From contig OZ320313.1 of the NCBI GenBank assembly GCA_976226885.1, forward strand, positions 52,638,001 through 52,702,000: a stretch of DNA of 64,000 nt. Reading direction: 5' to 3'. This DNA comes from Iphione sp. A-MEVVRFRX5 (lineage: Eukaryota). Both the position numbers and the translations under genes were made by a program. Below the pieces are notes generated by a model. That model was not told where the DNA came from. It did not search any database and saw nothing but the letters and a program-made list of their open reading frames with translations. This document shows, in pieces, positions 10,214 to 22,688 of this stretch; position 1 is the first letter of the stretch, and every line of letters begins with the position of its first letter.

Positions 10214-12182
10214 AGGAAAAGGGGACATTAAGGGAGGGAGACCAGGAGGCACTGGGATTTGGTGTATGCATCACACATACCCAGAGGACAGTCATTCCGA
10301 CCAGCCAGCGTTGCAAGGTTTAATAAGAAACCGTTAAAAAGAGAGAGGGAGCCGGCTATTAGAGGCAGGAACCGTCAGCAGCGTGGCCTTATTGAACTGA
10401 CAACGACTCACGTCCGCGAAAAACACCTCATTGACAACTAACTATGGTGGTCAGATAGAGTGATAACTCAGTCCCCGTGACCATGCGCTCGGAACTCTGC
10501 CCTGTCCTGTAGTCGTTCAGCTGCTCGGGTAGTGGTGTCGTAGACCCAGCTGTGCCATCCAGGCAAGGATTTATGCCCCTCGTCATAGCGCGCTCGTGCC
10601 TGACGACCGCTAGCGCACGTCGCCGCTACGTCTCGGTCACGTTACGGCTACGCCCTGTCCGTCTTTCATCATAGCATCGACCGCGCGACGGTCACGCAGG
10701 CGCAGTGATCATATTACACTGATTAGCACTGCCGAACTGCCAATGCGCAAGTCAACTGAGGCGCCACCGCCAATCGACCCCTTGTGGAAACACAGACTAT
10801 AAATTTCTACCCGGATTGGACCAGTCGCGACGCTACTTACGTCGTAGACCTGTGTGTGGCCAATACAATTCGCTTCTTTATATATTCTAGTAAGCCCGGT
10901 AAGGCAAACAGTGGAATACGATTTCGATATGACTTCACTGTTTCCTTCAAATCAAAATTCGCTTCAGATGTGTTAAAGTATATATACAAATGTAATTACA
11001 GAACAAGAAAAGACACGGCCCCATTTTTTCAGGTAAGATGTTATAAGATTATTTTAACTTTTCTCTTCCCCTCTCCCTACCCCTCTGTCACCAGTTTCTA
11101 TTGTGCGTGTGTGTCTATGTGCGCGTGTCTGTTCCCTGACACCATTCATTACCAGGGTGAGAAAAATGGCCGCCCTCCCGGAGTTCCTTCCTCCAATTGC
11201 CATCCAGCAGTGAGCAGCTCGCTGGAGTGGCTCCATCCGCTCCTGGGCCCCTAGGTCCCCAATGCCGAGACCATTAATAAAGAAAACCCGTCATTTTCTC
11301 GCCTTTTTTCTGGTCCGCCTCCTGCCTTACTCACTCTATCCTCACCTATCACTACGAACCTCATTAATGTCTGGGTTTATCAAGGCTTTCAGCCAATTAG
11401 TGCGCAGAGGGTAGCGACGCCGGGTGGAGATATCGGTGCAAATTGTCCAGTTTACTTCCAGGGCACGCAGGAATGTGTATTTCTACTAATGACACCATTT
11501 CTCAGCATATAGGCAGGTACACATGGTACACAAGAAATATCATCGGCAAGAAACTGATAGTTTCCCTATCACAAACATACACTGGTCAGCCTAAAGAGAC
11601 ACATTCCACTTTCAATATGATAATAATTCGGTGCGATGTGTCTCCAATAATTTCTACATCAGTGATGAAAGGTGCAGGTAGTTGGCACGTTTGCCAAATT
11701 GAAGATGGAGAGATGATGGAAACGATACATGCATGGCCGTCATAGGCGCCGCCCTCGTTCAGAATGGGTTCCACCCATATGTTTTGAATTTTGCAATGAG
11801 ACCGTCTCCCAGGCGATAGCTTTCACAGCCACCCTACAGGACGTCGATATATTGTCCCTAATCTCTGCCATATTTACCATGCATCACTTTAGTCGCTGTC
11901 CTTGAAAAAAGGACGCGACGACTAACAAGGAAACTGTAACCCCTGTTGCCTGTCACATGTTTTCGATTTATGGTTGGAATTGTTCTAACCTACACCAATT
12001 TATATCAATCATGTTCACTCTACAGATGAGAGATAAGAAAAAAAGAACAATTTCAAGACATTCCCGTGTGCATATTATATTATCGAACAGCAAATGTAGC
12101 AGTACCAAAAATATGTGCTTGAAGGAAAAAAGATTCACCTAGATTCTTATCAAGCTAATTCTATTGTAGAATAAGGTAAGTC

Positions 12183-12417
12183 GTGGTGCCACGGCCAGAT
12201 GGAGTGTACTCGGTGACCCTGGTACTGGTAATAAGTGTACAGAGTCGTGGTGCCACAGTTTGGTAAGATGTACTCAGTGACCTCGGTATTACAGTTGAAT
12301 AAGATAAGTCGTGGTGCCACGGCTAGATTAGGTGCACTTTGTGACCCTAAAGGCTGGACTTAAGAAAGAACCGTGGCACCACCGTTATTCATAGCAAAGA
12401 AAAAGTTAGGGGTGACC
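12183..12417. promoter_or_regulatory. U3 tandem repeat (about 64-bp period) carrying four GTGG(TG/CA)CCAC palindromes and four GTGACC motifs
   Basis: GTGGTGCCAC at 12183, 12247 and 12311, and GTGGCACCAC at 12373. GTGACC at 12213, 12277, 12341 (each exactly 30 nt after a palindrome start) and 12412. The same array is in the 3' LTR at +9905. Confidence 0.85.
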
Positions 12418-12560
12418 TTGGGCCCTGGTAATCCAGGCCCCTATTACTTTGTAGCTTTTGCCTGTGCATTGATTGGTGGAACAGAATGACACTGAACATG
12501 TTGTAGCAGTTTTATTCCATACATTGATACATGGCCTGATCACATGACACTGTGGATTGC

Positions 12561-12590
12561 TATAAATAAGAGCCCAGTGTGGCAAATAAA
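12561..12590 (+). promoter_or_regulatory. LTR TATA box (TATAAAT, 12561) and AATAAA poly(A) signal (12585-12590); 3' LTR copies at 22466 and 22490-22495
   Basis: Motifs are in the sequence, in the order usual for a U3/R junction. Confidence 0.7.
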
Positions 12591-12784
12591 GTCAGTCTGA
12601 ACTTGGATTACGTTGTGGCACTTGTCTCTTCAGGGAATGATAGGAACACAAAACCACTTGGAGCAACCTTAAGGGTGGGCTTGAGGATTACCTAGTGGAG
12701 CAATACTAGTAAGGCAACTAAGCCAGGATACTAGCAGTCATAGCTGGATACTGCCAAGTGGAGAATTAAACACGCATATTACAC

Positions 12785-12802
12785 TGGTGTCAGAAATGGG
12801 AT
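12785..12802 (+). other. Primer-binding site, probably tRNA-Leu
   Basis: TGGTGTCAGAAATGGGAT starts 1 nt after the 5' LTR. It matches the complement of the tRNA-Leu 3' end (TGGTGTCAGAAGTGGGAT) with one mismatch. Confidence 0.85.
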
Positions 12803-12814
12803 TCCCCAGACAGG

Positions 12815-13666
12815 ATGGCTACAGCGTATGTCTCAGTGGATGATGAGGTTCAGATTCGGGTGACTAGTCCTACACCCGCCGAGGAAGAAGACGAACACTT
12901 TGAGATTGCTCCAGAGGAGCCATTGAAGATGAACACCTTGAAACCCGAACGCTTCGATGGGAAGACTGTCGATTGGGACAGCTGGATTGGCCAATTTTCC
13001 GAGTGGGCGGATGCATGCCGTTGGGGCGAAGATACCAAATGTTCGGCCCTAACTTTGTCGCTCACCGGGACAGCACGCATGTTCTACGGAGACTTACCCG
13101 CAGATGACAAGAGGGATTATGCCTCGAGGGTGGCAGCCCTGGAGCGGCGCTTCGGCCGACGCAGGGATCGGGTGGTAGCGATGCAGAAACTGTCCGGAGT
13201 GAGACGACAGAAGGACGAGGACATCCGAGACCTGGCTGACCGGGTAAGGAGGTTAGTTCGCACAGCTTATCCCGATGTAACCGGGGAGACCAGGGAACTG
13301 GCAGCCGTGGCGGCCTTTCAGAGGGCCTTAGCAGACTCCTTGCATCTCAAATGCCTGGAGGCAAAATGCACCACCCTTGACAATGCCATCCAGGTAGTGG
13401 AGACTCAAGAGCGGTTCCGGGCGAAGACAGTTAATGTGGTACAACAGCCGCCCGCTCCCCCAGTCACTCCGACCTGGAAGAAGGAAGTGGAGGAGATCAT
13501 TGCGCAGGAATTACGCAAGTTCCGTGAAGGAGAGAAAGCCCAGGAGGAGGGAAAACCTCGGAGACCGCGATTTACGGGATGCTACCAATGTGGACAACAA
13601 GGCCTCTTTAAGCGGGATTGCCCACAGGCCCCTACCCAGGGAAACGCCCAGCAGCCAGCCCAGTAG
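12815..13666 (+). CDS. gag: Gag (283 aa) with capsid-like core and a degenerate C-terminal zinc knuckle
   Basis: ORF begins just after the PBS. Contains retrotransposon Gag-like motifs (KPERFDGKTVDWDSWIGQF; RRQKDEDIRDLADRVRRLVRTAYP) and CYQCGQQGLFKRDC (C-X2-C-X4-L-X4-C). Confidence 0.92.
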   Translation: MATAYVSVDDEVQIRVTSPTPAEEEDEHFEIAPEEPLKMNTLKPERFDGKTVDWDSWIGQFSEWADACRWGEDTKCSALTLSLTGTARMFYGDLPADDKRDYASRVAALERRFGRRRDRVVAMQKLSGVRRQKDEDIRDLADRVRRLVRTAYPDVTGETRELAAVAAFQRALADSLHLKCLEAKCTTLDNAIQVVETQERFRAKTVNVVQQPPAPPVTPTWKKEVEEIIAQELRKFREGEKAQEEGKPRRPRFTGCYQCGQQGLFKRDCPQAPTQGNAQQPAQ

Positions 13667-16600
13667 GCCAGGAGGGCTTGGCTGAACAGACCCCTACGGG
13701 GCAGATAATGGAACAAGGCCAGGGGCCACATTTACAGGTAAGCGTGAGGGGTGACAAATACTTGTTTCTCATTGACACGGGGGCTGAAGTTTCCATTATT
13801 AACCCGGGGGTGGTCCCTGGCCTAGATGGTGAAGGCGGGGATGTCCGTATTACTGGGGCAGGGGGGCACGTTATCCCCACATTGGGCCGGGAGATTCTGG
13901 AGGTTGAGATAGCGGGTCAACAGTTTACTCATCCTTTCCTGATTGCCAACATTGGGGAGGAGGGTCTGCTGGGGAGTGATTTCCTCAACCAACATCAGGC
14001 AGTTATAGATTTAGCACAGGGGAGGGTTCGATTTGGCCCAGGGATAGGCACCCGACAGATTCTGGGAGAACGGGTCCCTTTGCGTTTGGCCCATGACGTT
14101 ACCCTTCCCCCGGGAGAGGGAATAGCAGTCCCCCTAACTAATGGGGGTGGTGACGCCTTCCTAGTGGAGGGAGTAGAGGAGGACCAATTGAGGAGAGGGA
14201 TCTTTGGGATTCGAAGTGTTGTCAGAACTGCATTACCTTTGTGGAATCTCCAAAACCAAGAAGTTACGTTGACACAGGGTACCCTGGTGGCAATGGGTTA
14301 CCCTGCCAGTTGTCTAGAGAACAAGGAAGGAGGGTACCCGGCTAGAGTCTGTGCCGTTCGGAGGGAAGTGGAAGCAGTGCTGAAGAATTTGCTAGCGCAG
14401 GCCGCCCCACGCTTGGAGCACGAAGAACAAGGAGCATTAGCCGAGGTGCTCAGGAAACATGCGGCCGTGTTTGCTCAGACAAAGGGGGACTTGGGGAGGA
14501 CCGATATCGTTCAACACCGAATTTATCTGACCGACCCCCACCCCATCAAGCAACCTCCCAGGCGCCTCCCGCTGACACGCCGGAAGGAGGAGCGGGAGTT
14601 AGTACAAGAGATGAAGACTTTGGGGGTGATACAGGAGAGTAATAGCCCTTGGTCCAGCCCCGTGGTCATGGTGCGAAAGAAAGACGGTACCACCCGGTTC
14701 TGCGTAGATTATCGAAGGCTCAACCAGCAGACTAAGGTGGATGCATACCCCCTGCAGAGAATTGACGACTCATTGAGTACCCTGGCCGGAGCTCGCTATT
14801 TCTGTTCATTAGACTTGGCGTCGGGGTACTGGCAAGTACGAATGCACCCCGATGACCAAGAGAAGACGGCCTTTTCTACGTCGGTGGGCCTGTATGAGTT
14901 CACCGTGATGCCATTCGGTCTGGTGAATGCTCCGGCCACGTTTGAACGCTTGATGGATACTGTGCTTCGTGGATTAGCCTGGGAACAATGTCTGGTGTAC
15001 TTGGATGACATTCTGGTTTTCGGTCGGGACTTTGAAGAGACCTTGTGTCGCTTGGACAATGTACTGAGCCGCATCGCCAGTGCCGGCCTGAAACTAAAGC
15101 CTACGAAGTGTCAGTTGTTTCTGGAGGAAGTCAGTTTTCTAGGCCATGTGGTGTCGCAAAAAGGAGTAGCTACTGACCCCGTGAAGACAAAAGATATTAT
15201 CGAGTGGCCAACCCCACGATGCACGACAGACGTCCGTGCTTTCCTGGGGATCTGTTCCTACTATCGCCGACATGTTCCCCAGTTCGCCGATCTAGCAGCC
15301 CCGCTTAACCGGCTGACCAGCTCGCGAGTAAGATTCTCCTGGGGCCCCCAAGAGGAGGCTGCCTTCCAGAGCCTCAAACGCGCACTCAGCACCAGCCCGG
15401 TCCTGGGTTATCCTCATGCAGAAGGCAGGTACTACCTGGACACCGACGCCAGCAATGTTGGCCTGGGGGCCGTTCTGGCCCAGGAGCAGTTGGGCGAAGA
15501 AGTTGTGTTAGCCTACTTCAGCAGGAGCCTCAGCGAGGCTGAGCGGCGGTACTGCGTCATGAGAAGGGAACTGCTGGCCGTGGTAGCTGCACTCAAGCAC
15601 TTTCATTTCTACCTGTATGGGCAAGACGTCACTGTACGCACTGATAATGGGGCGGTGAGCTGGCTGACGAGGATAAAAGACCCTGAGGGACAGCTAGCCA
15701 GGTGGCTGGAGAGGATCGGCCAATACCAAGTACAATTCGTGCATCGGGCCGGCCGCCTGAATTCAAACGCAGATGCACTCTCTCGGCGCATTTGCAGACA
15801 GTGCAAACAGCCTCACCTGGAGCAAGAGGAACCCATATCAGCCACGGTACGGGTGGTCACGCGAAGTCAAATCACTGACGCCTGTTCACAAGATCTGCGC
15901 CGGGAGCAGCTATTAGACGAGGCAATAGGGCCTGTCCTGCGACTAAAAGAGAACGAGAACGACCGACCCTTGTGGGACAAGGTCTCGGCCTTGCCCGCCT
16001 GCGCCAAAGCCCTCTGGAGACAGTGGGACCGGCTAGTGGTGCATGATGGACTCCTACAACGCCGCTGGTATGGGATCGGGGATGGGCCGTCTAGGCTACA
16101 GGTTGTACTCCCCGCCAGCCGACGAGATGCAGCCATCGAAGAAGTACATGCAGGTCGCACGGGAAGTCACCTGGCAACGGATCGTACCACCTACCTGATT
16201 GCCCTCGCCTATTATTGGCCTGGGATGAGGCGAGAGGTGGAGGCCTTCTGCCGCCGCTGTCATTGCGCCCTGCTGAATGTCAACCCGTACAAGCCCCAAA
16301 CGACGTTAGTGACCTACCTGCCGGGAGAACCGATGGAGAGGTGGTCCATGGATGTGGCCGGCCCCCTGCCTGAGACTCGGCGGGGGAACAAATACATACT
16401 GATGGTGGGTGATTATTTTACGAAGTGGTTAGAGGCTTTCGCCATGCCGGACCAGAAGGCTGGCCGGGTGGCTACGCTCCTTGCTGAGGAAGTTATCTCA
16501 CGATATGGGTGCTTCTTGGAAATCCACAGCGACCAGGGCACGAACTTCTGCAGTGAGGTCCTAACAGCACTCTGCCAGTTTCTGGAAATTAAGAAGACCC

Positions 16601-17274
16601 GTACGACCCCGCGTCACCCACAGAGTGATGGATTTATAGAGAGGAGTTTCCGTACTGTTGGGCGCATGGTGAAAGCGCACTGTTATGAGACACAAGACGA
16701 TTGGGACGAGGCCTTACCCTACCTTATGATGGCATATAGGGCCTCCCCGCAATCTAGCACGGGGTATACCCCCAACCTCCTAATGTTCGGACGAGAGGTC
16801 GTACTACCGGTACATGCCTGGGCTGGGTTCCCGCAACATTGTCCCGACGAACGACCCCTCCCGGAGAGGGTAGCTGAAGTGAGTCGCCGACTTCAAGTCG
16901 CTTTCAAGACCGTGCGACACCATCTCCAGCGAGCTGCTAAGACCCAGGGACGGGCGTACGATCGGAGGGTCGAGGGAACTCAACTTCGGGAAGGGGACGT
17001 CGTTTGGCTACACGAAGCCCAACCCCCAAGAGGTCAAAGCCCGAAGACCTACTTCCCCTGGATTGGACCCTGGCTGGTTGTCAAACGATTGGACGATGCA
17101 CGGTATGTCGTTCAGCGCACGCGAAAGGCGAGACCGAAGGTAGTTCATCGCAACCGCTTGCGGCGCTACTGTAGTGGGAATCTACCACGGTGGATAGTCA
17201 GTTGGCGGCGAGCCCATCTCCCGACGGACGGAGACCGGGCAGGGACAGACGATTCAAAGGAAGAGAGGCTATAG
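13618..17274 (+). CDS. pol: Pol polyprotein: aspartic protease, reverse transcriptase, RNase H, integrase (probably entered by frameshift near 13645, not at the listed start)
   Basis: PR: FLIDTGAEVS. RT: LDLASGYWQV, MPFGLVNAPATF, YLDD. RNase H: LDTDASNVGLGAVL, RELLAVV, TDN, ADALSR. IN: H-X6-H finger, MDVAGP / HSDQG / FIERSF (DDE) and a GPW version of the GPY/F motif. Uninterrupted 1218-codon frame. Confidence 0.97.
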   Translation: MPTGPYPGKRPAASPVGQEGLAEQTPTGQIMEQGQGPHLQVSVRGDKYLFLIDTGAEVSIINPGVVPGLDGEGGDVRITGAGGHVIPTLGREILEVEIAGQQFTHPFLIANIGEEGLLGSDFLNQHQAVIDLAQGRVRFGPGIGTRQILGERVPLRLAHDVTLPPGEGIAVPLTNGGGDAFLVEGVEEDQLRRGIFGIRSVVRTALPLWNLQNQEVTLTQGTLVAMGYPASCLENKEGGYPARVCAVRREVEAVLKNLLAQAAPRLEHEEQGALAEVLRKHAAVFAQTKGDLGRTDIVQHRIYLTDPHPIKQPPRRLPLTRRKEERELVQEMKTLGVIQESNSPWSSPVVMVRKKDGTTRFCVDYRRLNQQTKVDAYPLQRIDDSLSTLAGARYFCSLDLASGYWQVRMHPDDQEKTAFSTSVGLYEFTVMPFGLVNAPATFERLMDTVLRGLAWEQCLVYLDDILVFGRDFEETLCRLDNVLSRIASAGLKLKPTKCQLFLEEVSFLGHVVSQKGVATDPVKTKDIIEWPTPRCTTDVRAFLGICSYYRRHVPQFADLAAPLNRLTSSRVRFSWGPQEEAAFQSLKRALSTSPVLGYPHAEGRYYLDTDASNVGLGAVLAQEQLGEEVVLAYFSRSLSEAERRYCVMRRELLAVVAALKHFHFYLYGQDVTVRTDNGAVSWLTRIKDPEGQLARWLERIGQYQVQFVHRAGRLNSNADALSRRICRQCKQPHLEQEEPISATVRVVTRSQITDACSQDLRREQLLDEAIGPVLRLKENENDRPLWDKVSALPACAKALWRQWDRLVVHDGLLQRRWYGIGDGPSRLQVVLPASRRDAAIEEVHAGRTGSHLATDRTTYLIALAYYWPGMRREVEAFCRRCHCALLNVNPYKPQTTLVTYLPGEPMERWSMDVAGPLPETRRGNKYILMVGDYFTKWLEAFAMPDQKAGRVATLLAEEVISRYGCFLEIHSDQGTNFCSEVLTALCQFLEIKKTRTTPRHPQSDGFIERSFRTVGRMVKAHCYETQDDWDEALPYLMMAYRASPQSSTGYTPNLLMFGREVVLPVHAWAGFPQHCPDERPLPERVAEVSRRLQVAFKTVRHHLQRAAKTQGRAYDRRVEGTQLREGDVVWLHEAQPPRGQSPKTYFPWIGPWLVVKRLDDARYVVQRTRKARPKVVHRNRLRRYCSGNLPRWIVSWRRAHLPTDGDRAGTDDSKEERL
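13639..13697 (+). other. -1 programmed ribosomal frameshift signal (gag-pol)
   Basis: Slippery heptamer G GGA AAC (13639-13645) lies in the gag frame and pol is in the -1 frame. After a 6-nt spacer comes a stem CAGCCAGCCC (13652-13661) / GGGCTTGGCTG (13674-13684). Confidence 0.8.
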
Positions 17275-17779
17275 AAGGATGCCTCGGCGAAACGGCGAAC
17301 GGAAAACCCCCATCTCTTGAAGTGCTCTTGAAAAATGTTCAGGGTAGGCGACGTGGGAAGCCTGAGGTACCAAGATGCCTGAAAGTCCCAGGAGTGGGCG
17401 AGGTGGGCAGCCCGAGGGTGCGTAGACACCCAAAAACAGCCCAGGGAAGAGGGAGACGCAGATCCCTGCAGGTGCCGGAAATATGGTCGGAGGTACGAGG
17501 AGCTCACCTGAAGTTGCAATTCGTGCAACGAGAAAAAGAGGCTCCTGGGGGAGGACTGATGAACGCCCCGAGATGCGAGCTGAAAACCCGGAAAGGTTCA
17601 TGGGGGGAGGCGACCATCCCCTAGGGCACCTGAAAATCTCTGTGGAGGGAGAGAATGACTGAACACCCTGCAAGAGCACTGGTCAAGAGGAGTTGGGGGG
17701 GAAACGGCAAGGAGATGTGGACCTCCTGGAACTCGGAATGGGAGTTCGAAAGAGCCCAGAAGAAACGGAGAGAAGGAAA

Positions 17780-17910
17780 CCGAGATGCGGGCCATTCCCT
17801 CTGGAAGTGACGCCAAGATGTGGTCCTTGTCCTCTGGTAGAAGAAAGGCCAAGCCACGCTCTATGTCCTCTAGAAGTGAAGCCAAGGTGAGGTCCTTGTC
17901 CTCTAGATGG
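17780..17910. repeat. Four degenerate 33-36 bp tandem repeats (CCRAGRTG...CCTCTRGA)
   Basis: Units start at 17780, 17813, 17849 and 17882, so spacings are 33, 36 and 33. Related cores lie at 17370, 17568 and 17710. Confidence 0.75.
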
Positions 17911-18018
17911 AGGGGAGAAAAGACAGTCAATGATCATTGAAAAAAAAAAATCAGTGGGTTATAATCTACAGTAATAGACGGAACACTGAACGCAAGTATA
18001 CAAGATGTGAAAGAACAA

Positions 18019-18024
18019 TTTATT
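18019..18024 (-). terminator. Poly(A) signal for the antisense gene
   Basis: AATAAA on the minus strand, 88 nt after the stop codon at 18112, followed by a T-rich stretch. Confidence 0.55.
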
Positions 18025-18111
18025 ACAGAGTAACGTATTTTCAGTCTGAAGTGCAAAACACATATACTAGAGGACGATATGTACAGTTCGGAAGTATACA
18101 GTCCGGCAGCC

Positions 18112-18848
18112 CTACTCTAAGATGATCGGATAGCTAGCCGAATCTCCGGGTTGCATCTCAGGAAACCAGTCCCGCAGAATATCGTCGGGCAGGTCATCTA
18201 ACAGAATCCTGCCGAGTGCTGGACCGGTAGCTGGTGAGCCAACCGGAGTGGGGCGTGAAGGCGTGTCCTGAGTGGTGCCACTGGAGGAGGATGAGGGCGA
18301 GCACGGCCCGAAGAGAGCGTCCGCCAGCAGGCTGATAGACCCGGCCGAACTCGGGCGGCCGGAGTCCGTACTGGAGGGCGGATCCCAGGGGTCCAGCCGG
18401 TCGGTGGTCCAGCTCCCTGGAGACCAAGAAAGGCTGGATGAAGCGGCCGGTGAGAGGCAGGGCGGCGTCATAGACCCCCCCCGGTACCAGCGAGGAGACG
18501 GCTCGGGGGGATCACCCAGCGTGGTGAAGTACGATGCCACCATCCGGGGGCTGATCTCCGGGGAGACCACCTCTGTGCGGGGCGCGTAAGACGGGCTCCT
18601 TGGAATGGTCGAAGGTGGTGTGAAGGATCGGGGGTCGGCGACTGATGGCTCAAGGGGGTAGACAGAAATATCTACCCGATGGTTCGGCCCGAAGAGCCGG
18701 ATGGTGCCGGGGGCTGGGACAAACAGTGGCTCTGTGAGAATCGGGTAGAGGCCGAAGATCCTGATTGTCGGCCCCGGGGTGCCGATGTCCAGCGCCCGGT
18801 AGTACCAGTCCGGGGGCTGGGATCTGAAAGAGGAAGAGAGCTGCGATG

Positions 18849-18888
<40 letters not shown>

Positions 18889-19282
18889 GGAAGAAGAAGA
18901 TTGGACTCACCCAGACCAACTCCGGGAGAATATGGCTGCCACACCTGAAAACAAGAGAGGGTGGAATCTTGTAACAGCAAACACAACTGCAACCATCCCA
19001 ACAGGTAAAGTCTCTGACAACACTTGGTAGGCAAGGGTAAAAGGAGAGAACCCCCATTGGTGAGCAGGAAAGGGGAGGCTTGCAGGGGGGGTACACCCCA
19101 TTGGAGGGAGGAAGGGGGAGGTTCACCCCCCAACCATAAGGGTAGGCCCTACCCTGGGAGGGAGGAAGCAAGAGGGGGGGCTCTCCAGTTAACCCCTCTA
19201 GATAAATACACTGAGGTAGGGAAGCTTACCTGTCCTCCATGGGGGGGTATCCCATCAAGTAGGCAGGTGGCCAGTAGTCCAT
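18112..19282 (-). CDS. Three-exon antisense accessory gene, 271 aa: join(complement 19230-19282, 18911-18944, 18112-18840)
   Basis: ATG at 19282. Intron 1 (285 nt): CAG|GTAAGC ... CTCTCTTGTTTTCAG|. Intron 2 (70 nt): TGG|GTGAGT ... T39-CATCGCAG|. Exons of 53, 34 and 729 nt join in frame. Protein: MDYWPPAYLMGYPPMEDRCGSHILPELVWLSSSFRSQPPDWYYRALDIGTPGPTIRIFGLYPILTEPLFVPAPGTIRLFGPNHRVDISVYPLE...ILLDDLPDDILRDWFPEMQPGDSASYPIILE. Confidence 0.8.
18849..18887 (+). repeat. A39 homopolymer (the poly-T tract of antisense intron 2)
   Basis: Seen directly. It lies between GTGAGT and CAG on the minus strand. Confidence 0.95.
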
Positions 19283-19313
19283 GATGACAATCCTCGTCGA
19301 GGCCGAGTCAGCG

Positions 19314-19349
19314 AGTGACGGCGGGTCGAGTGCAGCGCCCCCTTATATA
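19314..19349 (-). promoter_or_regulatory. Internal antisense core promoter (TATATAAG plus Inr-like TCACT)
   Basis: Minus-strand TATATAAG at 19349-19342. TCACT with its A at 19316, 33 nt downstream of the TATA start. First ATG at 19282. Confidence 0.65.
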
Positions 19350-19374
19350 GCTGCCGCAGGCCAGAAAAATAATC

Positions 19375-20182
19375 GTGGTGCCACGGGCCGAAAATCTTAT
19401 GACGCAATTTGTGAACTACGCCGCGGGGAAACGGATTCGACATGCAACGAGGAGGAACAAGTCAGGAATAACGGTGGTGCCACGCCCCGGGGGACATTTG
19501 TGGATCAAGACAGGAAATATTGCAAGAAGAACATCGCGTAACGAATCGTGGCACCACGAGTGGGGCTGGGCCGGAAATGGATAACGTCAACATCCGCGTC
19601 TGCCTCGCTCTGGATCCGGCTACGAAGAAAAATAGCCGTGGTGCCACGGATAAAAAGTGAAGGGTGGAGGTGACTTAAAATTAGCACACGACAAGTTTAA
19701 ACAGTGTACAGAGAAGAAAAGGGTTGAAATAACTGTGGTGCCACGGGCAGAAACGTTTGCAAATAAAAACGAAAACTTTGGGAGAAATCGCGGCACCACG
19801 GTTTGCTTCAGAAGATCAGCGTCCACTGTTGGATTTGCTCCCCCTCCCCCGTGTTTCTCCAGGAACAGGACAGGCAGGGCCCCCGGTCAACTGTGCACCA
19901 GGGGAAGGTGAAAACAAAGATCTATCCACCAATTTTGCGGAAGGAGGAGGAAACTTACATCGAGCCCCAACGAAGCGACAAGAAAAATCCGTGGCACCAC
20001 GGGCGGACTGGTCGTGAGACGTCAGGTAATTCCTTCACTTTGAATAAGATTGCCCTCCCCGGATTGTTATTATTCTCCTGTGATACGTAATCTATACGGG
20101 ATCTGTGTGCCTAAATCTTGTTTTCGCCGTATGTGACCGTGGTACCCCGAAACACCTGGACCCTAAAAAACGGTGGCACCGC
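19375..20182. promoter_or_regulatory. Internal array of the LTR palindrome GTGG(TG/CA)CCAC
   Basis: Exact copies at 19375, 19474, 19548, 19638, 19735 and 19991. One-mismatch copies at 19790 and 20173. Most are preceded by an A-rich run and flanked as CGTGG..CCACG. Confidence 0.85.
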
Positions 20183-20189
20183 GGCCAGA

Positions 20190-21581
20190 ATGCCTCGCCA
20201 TAAGATCGACGGCCCCACTCTCCCGCGCACCCTGGACAAGGACGACCCCCTCCCGGAGGGGACCAAGCTCTGCCCCAAGTGTGAGGTCGCTGGGAAGCGA
20301 CGCCCCTTCTACCCTGGCGACTCCTTGAAGCGCCATGACGACGAATTTCATCAAGGAAAGCGCAGGCGTTTTGTCCGTTGTTTTCTGTGTCCGAAGACAC
20401 TCAGCGAGGACCAAACCTGGGTATCCCACCACCGCCGGTACCATCCATGGGCGGTGAACCTGGGGATGGTGGAGCGCCCCTATCGCCGCTTATATGATGC
20501 GAACCCGGCACCGACAGTTGAGGCTCCCGATGACGAGATCACCGAAATTATTCTGTGGGCCCGAGAATTACGCCAGCGGGGAGACTACCTCGGACCAGAG
20601 GAAGCCGAGGCCATGCTGGCTGCCTCATCGCGGAGGGCCCCGGCCCCTCTACCGCTGCGGAAATGCCATCTAGCTGATCCTCGACCTGAAGGGGCATTGG
20701 AATTGGCAACCCCACGACTACCTCCGACACCGGACTCCGAAGAGGATGCCCACCGCCCTGTTGGCTCACCTCAGCCAGGCCCTTCCTGGGAGGCCGCTCC
20801 TCGGACCGGGCCATCCGCCGAGCCAGAAGGTGCCACTGCCCAACTAGAAGGGGTCGGTGCTAGGGATACCGGCGCCACTGGAGAGACCGACTACCCAACT
20901 GCTGCTGGCAACCTCCCACTGTTGTTGGAAGGGCGATTGGTCCGCCTCGCCCGTGCGGACGTCCCCCCTGGGTGGGTTGACCCCGCCACTAGGTTAGTCC
21001 GCGACATGCTGGATGGAGTCGCCCATCCGAGGATACCCGTGATGAGGAGCCGTTTCGAGCCAGCGGCTGTGCGCCTTCCCCCGACAATTACCTGGCCGCC
21101 ACCCCGTTGGGGGGAGATGACACCAGCTCAACGCATGATGACGAGTGCTTCGCTGGCGTGGGTGCTTCAGCTTGCCGAGGAGGGGGACCGGCTGCCAGGG
21201 ACATTGCTAGGCCCCCTAAGGAAACGACCTGCTCTTCTGCTGCCGGGACTGGAAATACCGACAGCCAACGAGTGGGGGGACCCGGCCGACCTCCTCACTC
21301 GCAATAACAAAACCATTGAAGCCGCCGAAGCCGCCCTGCGTGACACCCAACCCGGACCCTCCCGAGGACCCCGCCGGGTAAACACAGAGCTCCTCCAGTG
21401 GACCCAGCAGGCCCAGGAGGCTCATCGACTTCATCAAGCCCGACACCCCACCTTAGCGGACATTTGTAACCATGCGCCGCCCCTGCAGTCCCTCCTCAGT
21501 CTCGAGGACGTCTGGGGAGATGATGAAGAGGAGGAGTTAAGCACCGAGGCGGGTGACGCCCGAGAAGGTTCTACAGAGTAA
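20190..21581 (+). CDS. Accessory protein (463 aa): two N-terminal C2H2-type zinc fingers, Pro-rich linker, uncharacterised C-terminal domain, acidic tail
   Basis: Long open frame with first ATG at 20190. Finger 1: C-X2-C-X8-F-X5-L-X2-H-X4-H (CPKC...FYPGDSLKRHDDEFH). Finger 2: C-X2-C-X3-L-X5-W-X2-H-X4-H (CFLCPKTLSEDQTWVSHHRRYH). Ends DVWGDDEEEELSTEAGDAREGSTE. Confidence 0.85.
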   Translation: MPRHKIDGPTLPRTLDKDDPLPEGTKLCPKCEVAGKRRPFYPGDSLKRHDDEFHQGKRRRFVRCFLCPKTLSEDQTWVSHHRRYHPWAVNLGMVERPYRRLYDANPAPTVEAPDDEITEIILWARELRQRGDYLGPEEAEAMLAASSRRAPAPLPLRKCHLADPRPEGALELATPRLPPTPDSEEDAHRPVGSPQPGPSWEAAPRTGPSAEPEGATAQLEGVGARDTGATGETDYPTAAGNLPLLLEGRLVRLARADVPPGWVDPATRLVRDMLDGVAHPRIPVMRSRFEPAAVRLPPTITWPPPRWGEMTPAQRMMTSASLAWVLQLAEEGDRLPGTLLGPLRKRPALLLPGLEIPTANEWGDPADLLTRNNKTIEAAEAALRDTQPGPSRGPRRVNTELLQWTQQAQEAHRLHQARHPTLADICNHAPPLQSLLSLEDVWGDDEEEELSTEAGDAREGSTE

Positions 21582-22056
21582 AGAAGGGATGAGTCACTGT
21601 TAAGCTAATCTTTTAGAAGGAAAGCATAAAAGGAACTGTATCCGAAAAAAAAATATATTTTGAAGGTTCTTTGTTTGTTGCTTGGTAAGCAAGCTGTACT
21701 CCTGCCCCCAATGGGGGATTGCTATTCTGGATGCTCGTGAGCAGGAAACAAAAGAGGACTGTACCTCCAAAAAAAAAAAAATTTTTTTGACCACTGGATT
21801 TCACCCTCTGTGAGGGGTGGCTACACAAGAGAGTTAAGGCCAAAAGTAGAGGACTGTACCTCACAAAAATAAGGAAGAATTAAAACACGAGTATTTATTC
21901 AAGGATGGACTGTTTGACCCCAATCAGGGAGCACGGGGGGGGGGGCCAACAACTTATAAGACTATACCTACCCCAGAAGTTGAAGGAGGACTCCCCGATA
22001 TGCCCGGCTAGATGGTAAGTACCCTGACTCCTGTTTCACGAGGGGGACTGTGTTTT

Positions 22057-22069
22057 AAGGAGGGGAGAG
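22057..22069 (+). other. Polypurine tract
   Basis: AAGGAGGGGAGAG immediately before the TG of the 3' LTR. Confidence 0.9.
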
Positions 22070-22688
22070 TGTAGAATAAGGTAAGTCGTGGTGCCACGGC
22101 CAGATGGAGTGTACTCGGTGACCCTGGTACTGGTAATAAGTGTACAGAGTCGTGGTGCCACAGTTTGGTAAGATGTACTCAGTGACCTCGGTATTACAGT
22201 TGAATAAGATAAGTCGTGGTGCCACGGCTAGATTAGGTGCACTTTGTGACCCTAAAGGCTGGACTTAAGAAAGAACCGTGGCACCACCGTTATTCATAGC
22301 AAAGAAAAAGTTAGGGGTGACCTTGGGCCCTGGTAATCCAGGCCCCTATTACTTTGTAGCTTTTGCCTGTGCATTGATTGGTGGAACAGAATGACACTGA
22401 ACATGTTGTAGCAGTTTTATTCCATACATTGATACATGGCCTGATCACATGACACTGTGGATTGCTATAAATAAGAGCCCAGTGTGGCAAATAAAGTCAG
22501 TCTGAACTTGGATTACGTTGTGGCACTTGTCTCTTCAGGGAATGATAGGAACACAAAACCACTTGGAGCAACCTTAAGGGTGGGCTTGAGGATTACCTAG
22601 TGGAGCAATACTAGTAAGGCAACTAAGCCAGGATACTAGCAGTCATAGCTGGATACTGCCAAGTGGAGAATTAAACACGCATATTACA
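22070..22688 (+). repeat. 3' LTR
   Basis: Copy of 12165-12783, followed by the TSD CTAT. Confidence 0.97.

Follow-up and report, generated by a model that had tools for sequence, protein, structure and literature searches.

What does a retrotransposon gain from a short palindrome that stands both in its long terminal repeats (LTRs) and in an array deep inside it? The question is raised by a 64,000-nucleotide stretch of Iphione sp. A-MEVVRFRX5 (contig OZ320313.1, positions 52,638,001 to 52,702,000; the whole stretch is called the window below), where an intact Ty3/gypsy LTR retrotransposon at 12165-22688 houses a palindrome array that lies past pol and ahead of its 3' LTR. The original prediction took the array for a second, possibly bidirectional control region made of selected binding sites for a dimeric factor. 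The analysis supports selected, non-random sites for a dimeric DNA-binding factor, which recur in the LTR and stand beside a well-formed antisense promoter. We consider it reasonably probable that the array is a selected cluster of regulatory sites, shared with the LTR, that co-regulates the LTR and a credible internal antisense promoter. The array would be a homotypic cluster whose double-stranded DNA sites all serve one dimeric transcription factor. Because the same sites stand in the U3 part of the LTR, this factor would act on two promoters at once: the LTR promoter, for genomic RNA and gag-pol, and the internal antisense TATA promoter.

Palindromic sites in the array and the LTRs

The internal array comprises eight 18-bp palindromic sites without assigned strand (19371..20186), with 10-bp cores at 19375, 19474, 19548, 19638, 19735, 19790, 19991 and 20173. 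As first described, six cores (19375, 19474, 19548, 19638, 19735 and 19991) are exact and two (19790 and 20173) have one mismatch, and the intervals between them are irregular (99, 74, 90, 97, 55, 201 and 182 nt). The array shows no tandem period and its sites no common helical phase; a degenerate ninth site at 20139 scores not above background. The palindromes are indeed shared with the LTR, each LTR having four exact copies. Those of the 5' LTR lie in U3 at 12179..12386 (cores 12183, 12247, 12311 and 12373), and the same four copies were found by motif search in the 3' LTR at 22084..22291.

The 64 kb contain the exact core, GTGGNNCCAC, 15 times, where 0.87 copies would be expected and no more than 3 were seen in any of 100 shuffles. 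All 15 copies lie in the element: four in each LTR, six in the array and one at 18272..18281 on the plus strand, inside the antisense coding exon and without the wider flanks. The motif had not been noticed outside the array and the LTR; no exact copy indeed lies outside the element, but the copy at 18272 has to be added. Two one-mismatch copies were found in the window outside the element. In a post-hoc control, the 839-nt region gave 6 copies of the best palindrome of the 4-2-4 form, and none of 500 shuffles gave more than 3. Among 63 real windows outside, the best palindrome had 1 or 2 copies in 59, 4 in one and 52-121 in three, the latter being taken to be microsatellites.

The site turned out to be wider than the 10-mer, by 4 bp on each side, and forms an 18-bp palindrome, RNYCGTGG-(TG/CA)-CCACGRNY. 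In the 24 half-sites of the 12 distinct sites, position -4 is a purine in 24/24, position -2 a pyrimidine in 23/24 and position -1 a C in 19/24. The same holds for the 10 independent sites that are free of the LTR tandem unit, which have Y at -2 and at +14 in 10/10, A at -4 in 10/10 and G at +11 in 9/10 (p from 1e-5 to 2e-4). The proposed extension to CGTGG-NN-CCACG is thus confirmed, with the outer CpG kept in 19 of the 24 half-sites and decayed in 2. Both variant copies change GTG to GCG. The centre of the 12 distinct sites is TG in 7, CA in 5 and nothing else, and spacers of other lengths show no enrichment. As expected of a DNA site, TG and CA are the reverse complements of each other; both are also decay products of CpG. 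A fixed purine-pyrimidine kink alone was rejected as the centre rule, TA and CG being absent from the 12 sites. CpG decay was likewise rejected as the full rule: it explains the interconversion of TG and CA, not the keeping of both, and a fungal motif considered below has TG too. The centre, as well as the outer CpGs, would bear on any methylation sensitivity.

The flanks are less simple than first reported. An A-rich 5' flank is present (of 80 positions, 46 are A where 24.7 would be expected; p 4e-5), but it follows the plus strand of the element and not the centre dinucleotide; all 5 CA-centred copies match the flank profile of the TG-centred ones better uninverted. The flanks had also been called unrelated. 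This stands insofar as a masked local alignment of U3 with the array is not significant (59 of 300 shuffles reach its score), but not for the tandem unit of the LTR, an inverted 19-nt match and shared 11-mers. LTR copies 1-3 sit in a 64-bp degenerate tandem unit (flank z 3.4-6.7), and LTR copy 4 equals the internal copy at 19474 over 19/19 nt in inverted orientation, the sole true inversion. U3 and the array share two 11-mers and one 9-mer on the same strand and in the same order; two shared 11-mers were obtained in 4 of 2000 shuffles and in 0 of 138 real windows. A common origin of the array with U3 is possible. Selection is needed nonetheless, because the cores are nearly invariant while the flanks are unalignable, and the two explanations are compatible.

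In the LTR unit the palindrome alternates with DR3-like words, RGGTCA-n3-AGTRCA, on the minus strand, three per LTR (12205..12347 in the 5' LTR and 22110-22252 in the 3' LTR). The window contains six of them, all in the two LTRs and none in the array. These words we take to be possible nuclear-receptor (hormone) elements. Since they occur in the LTR unit but not in the array, the two regions would share one input and differ in another. bZIP-like words, by patterns chosen after looking, stand at 19400, 19589, 20024 and 20090, so that 4 of the element's 7 are in the array.

The predicted antisense gene and the zinc-finger reading frame

The putative antisense core promoter lies at 19313..19349 on the minus strand, with TATATAAG at 19349-19342 and an initiator-like (Inr-like) TCACTC whose A is at 19316. 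As had been noted, 26 nt separate the first palindrome copy from this TATA, counted to the first T of TATATAAG on the minus strand (19349). The array sites occupy 26-824 nt upstream of this TATA, the U3 sites 179-369 nt upstream of the LTR TATA, and the spacing from TATA to Inr is 33 nt in both promoters. The internal TATA promoter would fire antisense into a spliced accessory gene, predicted at 18112..19282 on the minus strand with its ATG at 19282, a donor at 19229, an optional 34-nt exon at 18944-18911, acceptors at 18841 or 18824 and a stop at 18112; an AATAAA follows 88 nt behind the stop (18019..18024, minus strand). Two in-frame splice routes would give Pro/Ser-rich proteins of 271 or 254 amino acids (aa). 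The donor at 19229 and the acceptors 18945 and 18841 score at or above the 99.8th percentile. A run of 39 A at 18849-18887 is the pyrimidine tract of the antisense intron. The predicted protein (19230-19282 and 18540-18944, minus strand) has a PPxY word at its start and Tyr-Ser-Pro-like words further on.

On the other side of the array, the last copy ends at 20182, 8 nt before the ATG of a third open reading frame (ORF), as originally stated. This plus-strand ORF (20190..21581, 463 aa) encodes divergent C2H2 fingers at aa 28-54 and 64-85, a Pro-rich middle and an acidic tail with 10 D/E in the last 23 aa. It is probably coding, being the only frame of six with a positive codon score. The fingers form a C2H2 pair with a short linker of 9 residues; in finger 1, 17 residues separate Cys from His. 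The whole ORF found no relatives among 8000 candidates and matched no Pfam family, and Atlas look-ups gave unnamed or weak C2H2 clusters. When the first 160 aa were compared with 1.84 billion proteins, 2 matches were obtained, both copepod proteins with four finger pairs. The copepod finger-1 helix and finger 1 of the element share D+2, S+3 and R+6, a combination found in 0 of 503 generic fingers. Descent from the copepod fingers is unproven: on the copepod profile the element pair reaches 17 bits, whereas 374 generic pairs have a median of 35.7. The copepod family itself (P0121-P0145) has four repeated C2H2 pairs with nearly fixed helices. Two single-sequence structure predictions were unusable, with a mean predicted local distance difference test (pLDDT) of 41 and 39.

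The mRNA of the zinc-finger ORF would be made from a spliced sense RNA running through the array, starting either in the LTR or within the array. An ATG-free 5' leader exon is predicted inside the array at 19863..20025 on the plus strand (acceptor 19862, donor 20026), followed by a predicted intron at 20026..20188, whose last 140 nt are AG-free up to the AG one base before the ATG. The acceptor at 19862 is the best plus-strand acceptor of the element and the only one scoring at least 6, and the AG-free stretch is the longest of 826 gaps. Because of this acceptor, the donor at 20026 and the AG-free stretch before the ATG, the third ORF is probably made by splicing. Its first exon would lie either in the LTR leader, where the donors at 12675 and 12709 are moderate, or else in the array, which has a donor at 19670.

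The element and its gypsy relatives

The two LTRs (12165..12783 and 22070..22688, plus strand) are 619 bp long and identical, have TG...CA ends and, with the element between them, are surrounded by a CTAT 4-bp target duplication. The LTR has its TATA at 12561, AATAAA at 12585 and the Inr TCAGTC at 12592. A primer-binding site follows the 5' LTR and a polypurine tract stands just before the 3' LTR, as in LTR retrotransposons generally. Since the LTRs are identical and the element is intact, the insertion is very recent. On the plus strand, gag (12815..13666, 283 aa) overlaps an open pol frame (13612..17274) whose protease-RT-RNase H-integrase order (RT, reverse transcriptase) is that of Ty3/gypsy. 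The 4.8 kb from pol to the 3' LTR hold the predicted antisense gene, the array and the 463-aa sense ORF. No env family was matched among the post-pol ORFs scanned, Pfam found nothing in 45 other frames of at least 100 aa in the window (42 outside the element, 3 inside), and Rfam gave no match anywhere in the 64 kb. Named pol relatives at 56-60% identity are mostly from arthropods, with one from a mollusc, which places the host as an animal and probably an invertebrate. An RT tree, made by a quick method only, groups the element with three proteins at 64-65% identity; its label-change count is unreliable, nine protein rows being of unknown status. Two further repeats were seen: a degenerate tandem repeat of 33-36 bp behind pol (17780-17909), and a 25-nt word around GGACTGTACC with A-tracts, in three copies, between the third ORF and the polypurine tract (21630-21872).

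A scan of a genome collection yielded 63 distant gypsy loci, of which 61 were analysed (612,513 bases). Many bacterial and archaeal bins of the collection thus contain animal-type gypsy elements (L003-L063), some with both LTRs, apparently through host contamination. The exact motif occurs once in these 612,513 bases, and the motif is therefore family-specific at this distance. Forty-two loci were screened behind pol, 38 of them with at least 350 nt there, and 10 of the 42 have a C2H2 ORF; several are near-copies, and about five lineages are represented. Sense C2H2 pairs are found at L005:6198-7511, L006:8466-9032, L007:3822-4175, L009:5039-5683, L017:6746-7435 and L018:3181-4014, single fingers in L022, L023 and L030, and an antisense pair in L038. 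Homology of the window fingers to these pairs is not shown, since 27-34% of generic pairs score as high; place and layout are the same. In L005-L007 an Arg/Ser-rich tail after the C2H2 fingers could point to RNA processing or packaging.

Dispersed palindromes appear in the three longest of 21 post-pol regions, with 6 copies in the window element, 8 in L038 and 7 in L039, and at most 3 in 60 shuffles of each. L017 has one palindrome in 3 copies, from what looks like a short duplication, and the other 17 regions have no dispersed palindromes; all of them are shorter, so less able to show any. The palindromes of L038 (AGWACGTWCT-type) and L039 (TTCGAA) are CpG-centred. In both loci a histone H3-like gene follows pol and precedes the 3' LTR (L038:3711-6481 and L039:9252-10496; Pfam Histone E 6e-29 and 2e-30), and in L038 the antisense C2H2-pair gene points away from the H3-like gene, which is the divergent layout of the window element. 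Nearly all copies of the L038 and L039 motifs are found outside the LTR, so a motif shared with the LTR is no general feature. CpG-dense, ACGC/CGTA-rich patches were seen in U3 and just before the C2H2 ORF of L017, L022 and L030, with 7-15 CpG per 100 nt against 4-5 in gag-pol.

Candidate binders, rival readings and known systems

As a tentative first guess, the binder would be a host dimer with the geometry of bZIP proteins. With its pattern R-T-x-G-(TG/CA)-C-x-A-Y, the site has the form of C/EBP sites: the bZIP (C/EBP-like) dyad of 10 bp is R-T-x-G-(CG/TG/CA)-C-x-A-Y, and all 15 copies have this form, but with one base changed, the third being G. No bZIP-like stretch is encoded in the post-pol region of the element. 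A cellular factor is also favoured by analogy with Fusarium, where the identical 10-mer, with a TG centre, is reported as enriched in the promoters of a co-expressed cluster and present in 12 of its 16 genes (PMC4198257). The fungal 10-mer therefore suggests that an ordinary eukaryotic DNA-binding domain may prefer this word and this centre without CpG decay.

That the element regulates itself through its own finger pair, our second guess, appears rather unlikely, and what remains of our expectation falls to other binders. Under self-regulation the two-finger protein would bind the palindrome as a dimer and activate or de-silence both promoters, in the manner of foamy-virus Tas (not known to be a C2H2 protein) or plant VANC. 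The acidic tail and positive codon score would suit such a regulator, as would the family-specific motif and the recurrence of a C2H2 third ORF in 10 of 42 related loci. In engineered fingers, Ser at +3 and Arg at +6 read G-T (PMC3077364, PMC2634973, PMC3607563); by published rules, Glu at -1 reads C, 5mC or T (PMC12264921). Finger 1 of the element has Ser +3 and Arg +6 (G-T) and finger 2 has Glu -1 (C/5mC/T), which together predict Y-G-T, as in the half-site C-G-T, and both variant copies alter the loosely read middle base of the finger-1 triplet. The proposal that the zinc-finger protein is the binder thus gains a code match, but Y-G-T occurs in 38-46% of random palindromes and a fuller pattern in 8-11%, and the match fails in six of seven relatives: L005 alone shows enrichment of the code-predicted word in its control regions (z 2.1), with z from -2.2 to +0.9 in the others. 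Specifying residues occupy 2 of the 6 positions (-1, +3 and +6 of both fingers); position -1 of finger 1 is Pro, and finger 2 lacks a basic residue at any of the three. L039 has a palindrome array, yet no finger in 87 frames scanned, and the fungal promoters contain the same 10-mer.

RUNX, proposed as a reader of the CGTGGT/TGTGGT half, is hardly to be expected here. Its consensus is TGYGGT, with T preferred before GTGG, and the change of GTG to GCG in both variants is allowed by it. Of the 24 half-sites, however, 19 have C ahead of GTGG and 2 have T, even though CpG decay would supply T; moreover, T ends just one half of each site, and a monomer site leaves the symmetry out to -4 of the 18-mer unexplained. 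A signal at the RNA level, in which A-rich leaders and small hairpins would serve packaging, export or splicing, is very improbable. The A-rich flank and G at +16 stay on the plus strand, several copies fold as stems of 5-6 bp with a 4-nt loop, and the Cer1 export protein comes from a spliced mRNA (PMC10309623). Against it, the folds do no better than their shuffles in 10 cases of 10 (z -1.68 to +1.26), each loop type is the reverse complement of the other, the copies in the 5' LTR are upstream of the start site, and the plus strand is A-rich across the whole region (AT skew 0.27). It is very improbable that the array is a neutral relic left behind when U3 was duplicated into the interior long ago; the shared 11-mers and 9-mer and the uniform flank polarity would suit a relic, but the insignificant masked alignment, the near-invariant cores amid unalignable flanks and the lack of the DR3-like half of the LTR unit in the array would not. 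A truly bidirectional promoter, which would also start the zinc-finger mRNA in the array, is possible but doubtful. Two genes point away from the array, a layout repeated in L038; CpG observed/expected is 1.04 in the array against 0.82 outside and 0.36 in the LTR; and the donor at 19670 (98th percentile) is usable ahead of the acceptor at 19862, the LTR-leader donors being only moderate. In Tor elements, too, an internal promoter drives the third ORF (PMC4402516). The bidirectional part of the original prediction nevertheless stays doubtful: neither a TATA (TATAWAAR) nor an Inr (TCAKTY) occurs on the plus strand within the array, three upstream ATGs precede 19670, and the best plus-strand acceptor lies inside the array. 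In relatives the C2H2 ORF stands behind pol after an acceptor, with its ATG 0-3 nt after it in L005, L006, L007, L018 and L030 and, in L005-L007, at a distance of up to about 110 nt from where the pol match ends. A C2H2 ATG directly after an acceptor suggests that these ORFs are usually reached by splicing from the LTR.

Several points weigh against a shared site cluster that co-regulates the LTR and the antisense promoter. The site evidence comes from a single copy of the family, and half-site matches fall in the presumed LTR for 1 of 34 post-pol matches in L038 and 0 of 12 in L039. Two palindromes (19991 and 20173) lie inside the predicted leader exon and intron, respectively; the acceptor at 20188 scores poorly (33rd percentile), and the splice scores use frequency tables entered by hand. 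Exon 3 of the antisense gene has a coding score of -0.10 bits per codon, the best of six frames yet negative, and the antisense protein gave no relatives, an empty Atlas look-up for the exon and no Pfam family. No animal factor with this half-site was identified in a search that did not cover the JASPAR and CIS-BP motif libraries.

The nearest known arrangement is the RM box of Sireviruses, which are plant Ty1/copia elements. RM boxes are described as family-specific CpG palindromes of 10-20 bp whose flanks have diverged; their 8-32 copies form clusters upstream of the LTR TATA and, a second time, upstream of the third ORF. An internal promoter was proposed, and the paper describing the boxes did not find their binder (PMC2829016). 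Palindromes in the LTR and upstream of the third ORF are thus already known from plants, and the window element shares this position. It differs from Sireviruses in being Ty3/gypsy by domain order with animal relatives, in its GTGG/CCAC core as opposed to CGG/CCG, and in having a predicted antisense gene that brings its own TATA on one side of the array and a C2H2 ORF on the other, the Sirevirus third ORF being env-like. What is new is an animal case of LTR plus internal palindromes, together with distant gypsy relatives that have a C2H2 third ORF (10/42) or their own CpG-centred palindrome arrays (2). As in the foamy-virus Tas system, there are two promoters, the internal one beside accessory genes; in that system both answer to one DNA-binding dimer, whereas the window element has no env match, its evident internal promoter is antisense, and the element protein is a candidate binder only (PMC3798896). 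VANC/VANDAL anti-silencing similarly combines dense, family-specific motifs in non-coding parts and introns, partly tandem, with an accessory protein, and there motif binding and demethylation have been demonstrated; VANDALs, however, are plant DNA transposons whose motif is no spaced palindrome, and the present retrotransposon has no VANC-family match by Pfam (PMC5735166).

Retand and Grande resemble the element in a long region from pol to the 3' LTR (2.9-6.6 kb there, 4.8 kb here) and an antisense gene with its own promoter (PMC11963269, PMC7264820), and Oikopleura Tor in an internal promoter within an animal gypsy-like element (PMC4402516). Unlike them, the window element has no TRP28 or env domain, its palindromes are dispersed and not in tandem arrays, and its two accessory genes are divergent. 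The motif of Fusarium graminearum cluster C02 is the identical 10-mer with a TG centre (one fungal copy has TA) in promoters of co-expressed genes, but these are fungal host genes with one site per promoter, and no common descent is implied (PMC4198257). Bdelloid third ORFs are diverse and spliced, and the accessible part of that account mentions no zinc finger (PMC5408684). No published gypsy element with a C2H2 accessory regulator was found among the papers listed, subscription journals and repeat databases being outside the search. By analogy, the element would work like the Sirevirus RM arrangement and may work like Tas and VANC; it is a member of none of these groups.

A farther-reaching proposal, which we regard as distinctly unlikely, is that this env-less animal LTR retrotransposon has its own two-finger regulator at the LTR and at the internal promoter, with the TG/CA dyad replacing a methylated CpG, so that the circuit would work on methylated DNA or lift its silencing; the C2H2 third ORFs, H3-like genes and CpG-centred palindromes of relatives would then form a wider, undescribed self-regulating class. 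The recurring C2H2 third ORFs and private palindromes do suggest a broader accessory layer in invertebrate gypsy elements, of which no description was found among the top-listed papers of the literature searched. This intact and very young element, with one short site, two promoters and one candidate protein of 75 residues, should make self-regulation and host control separable.
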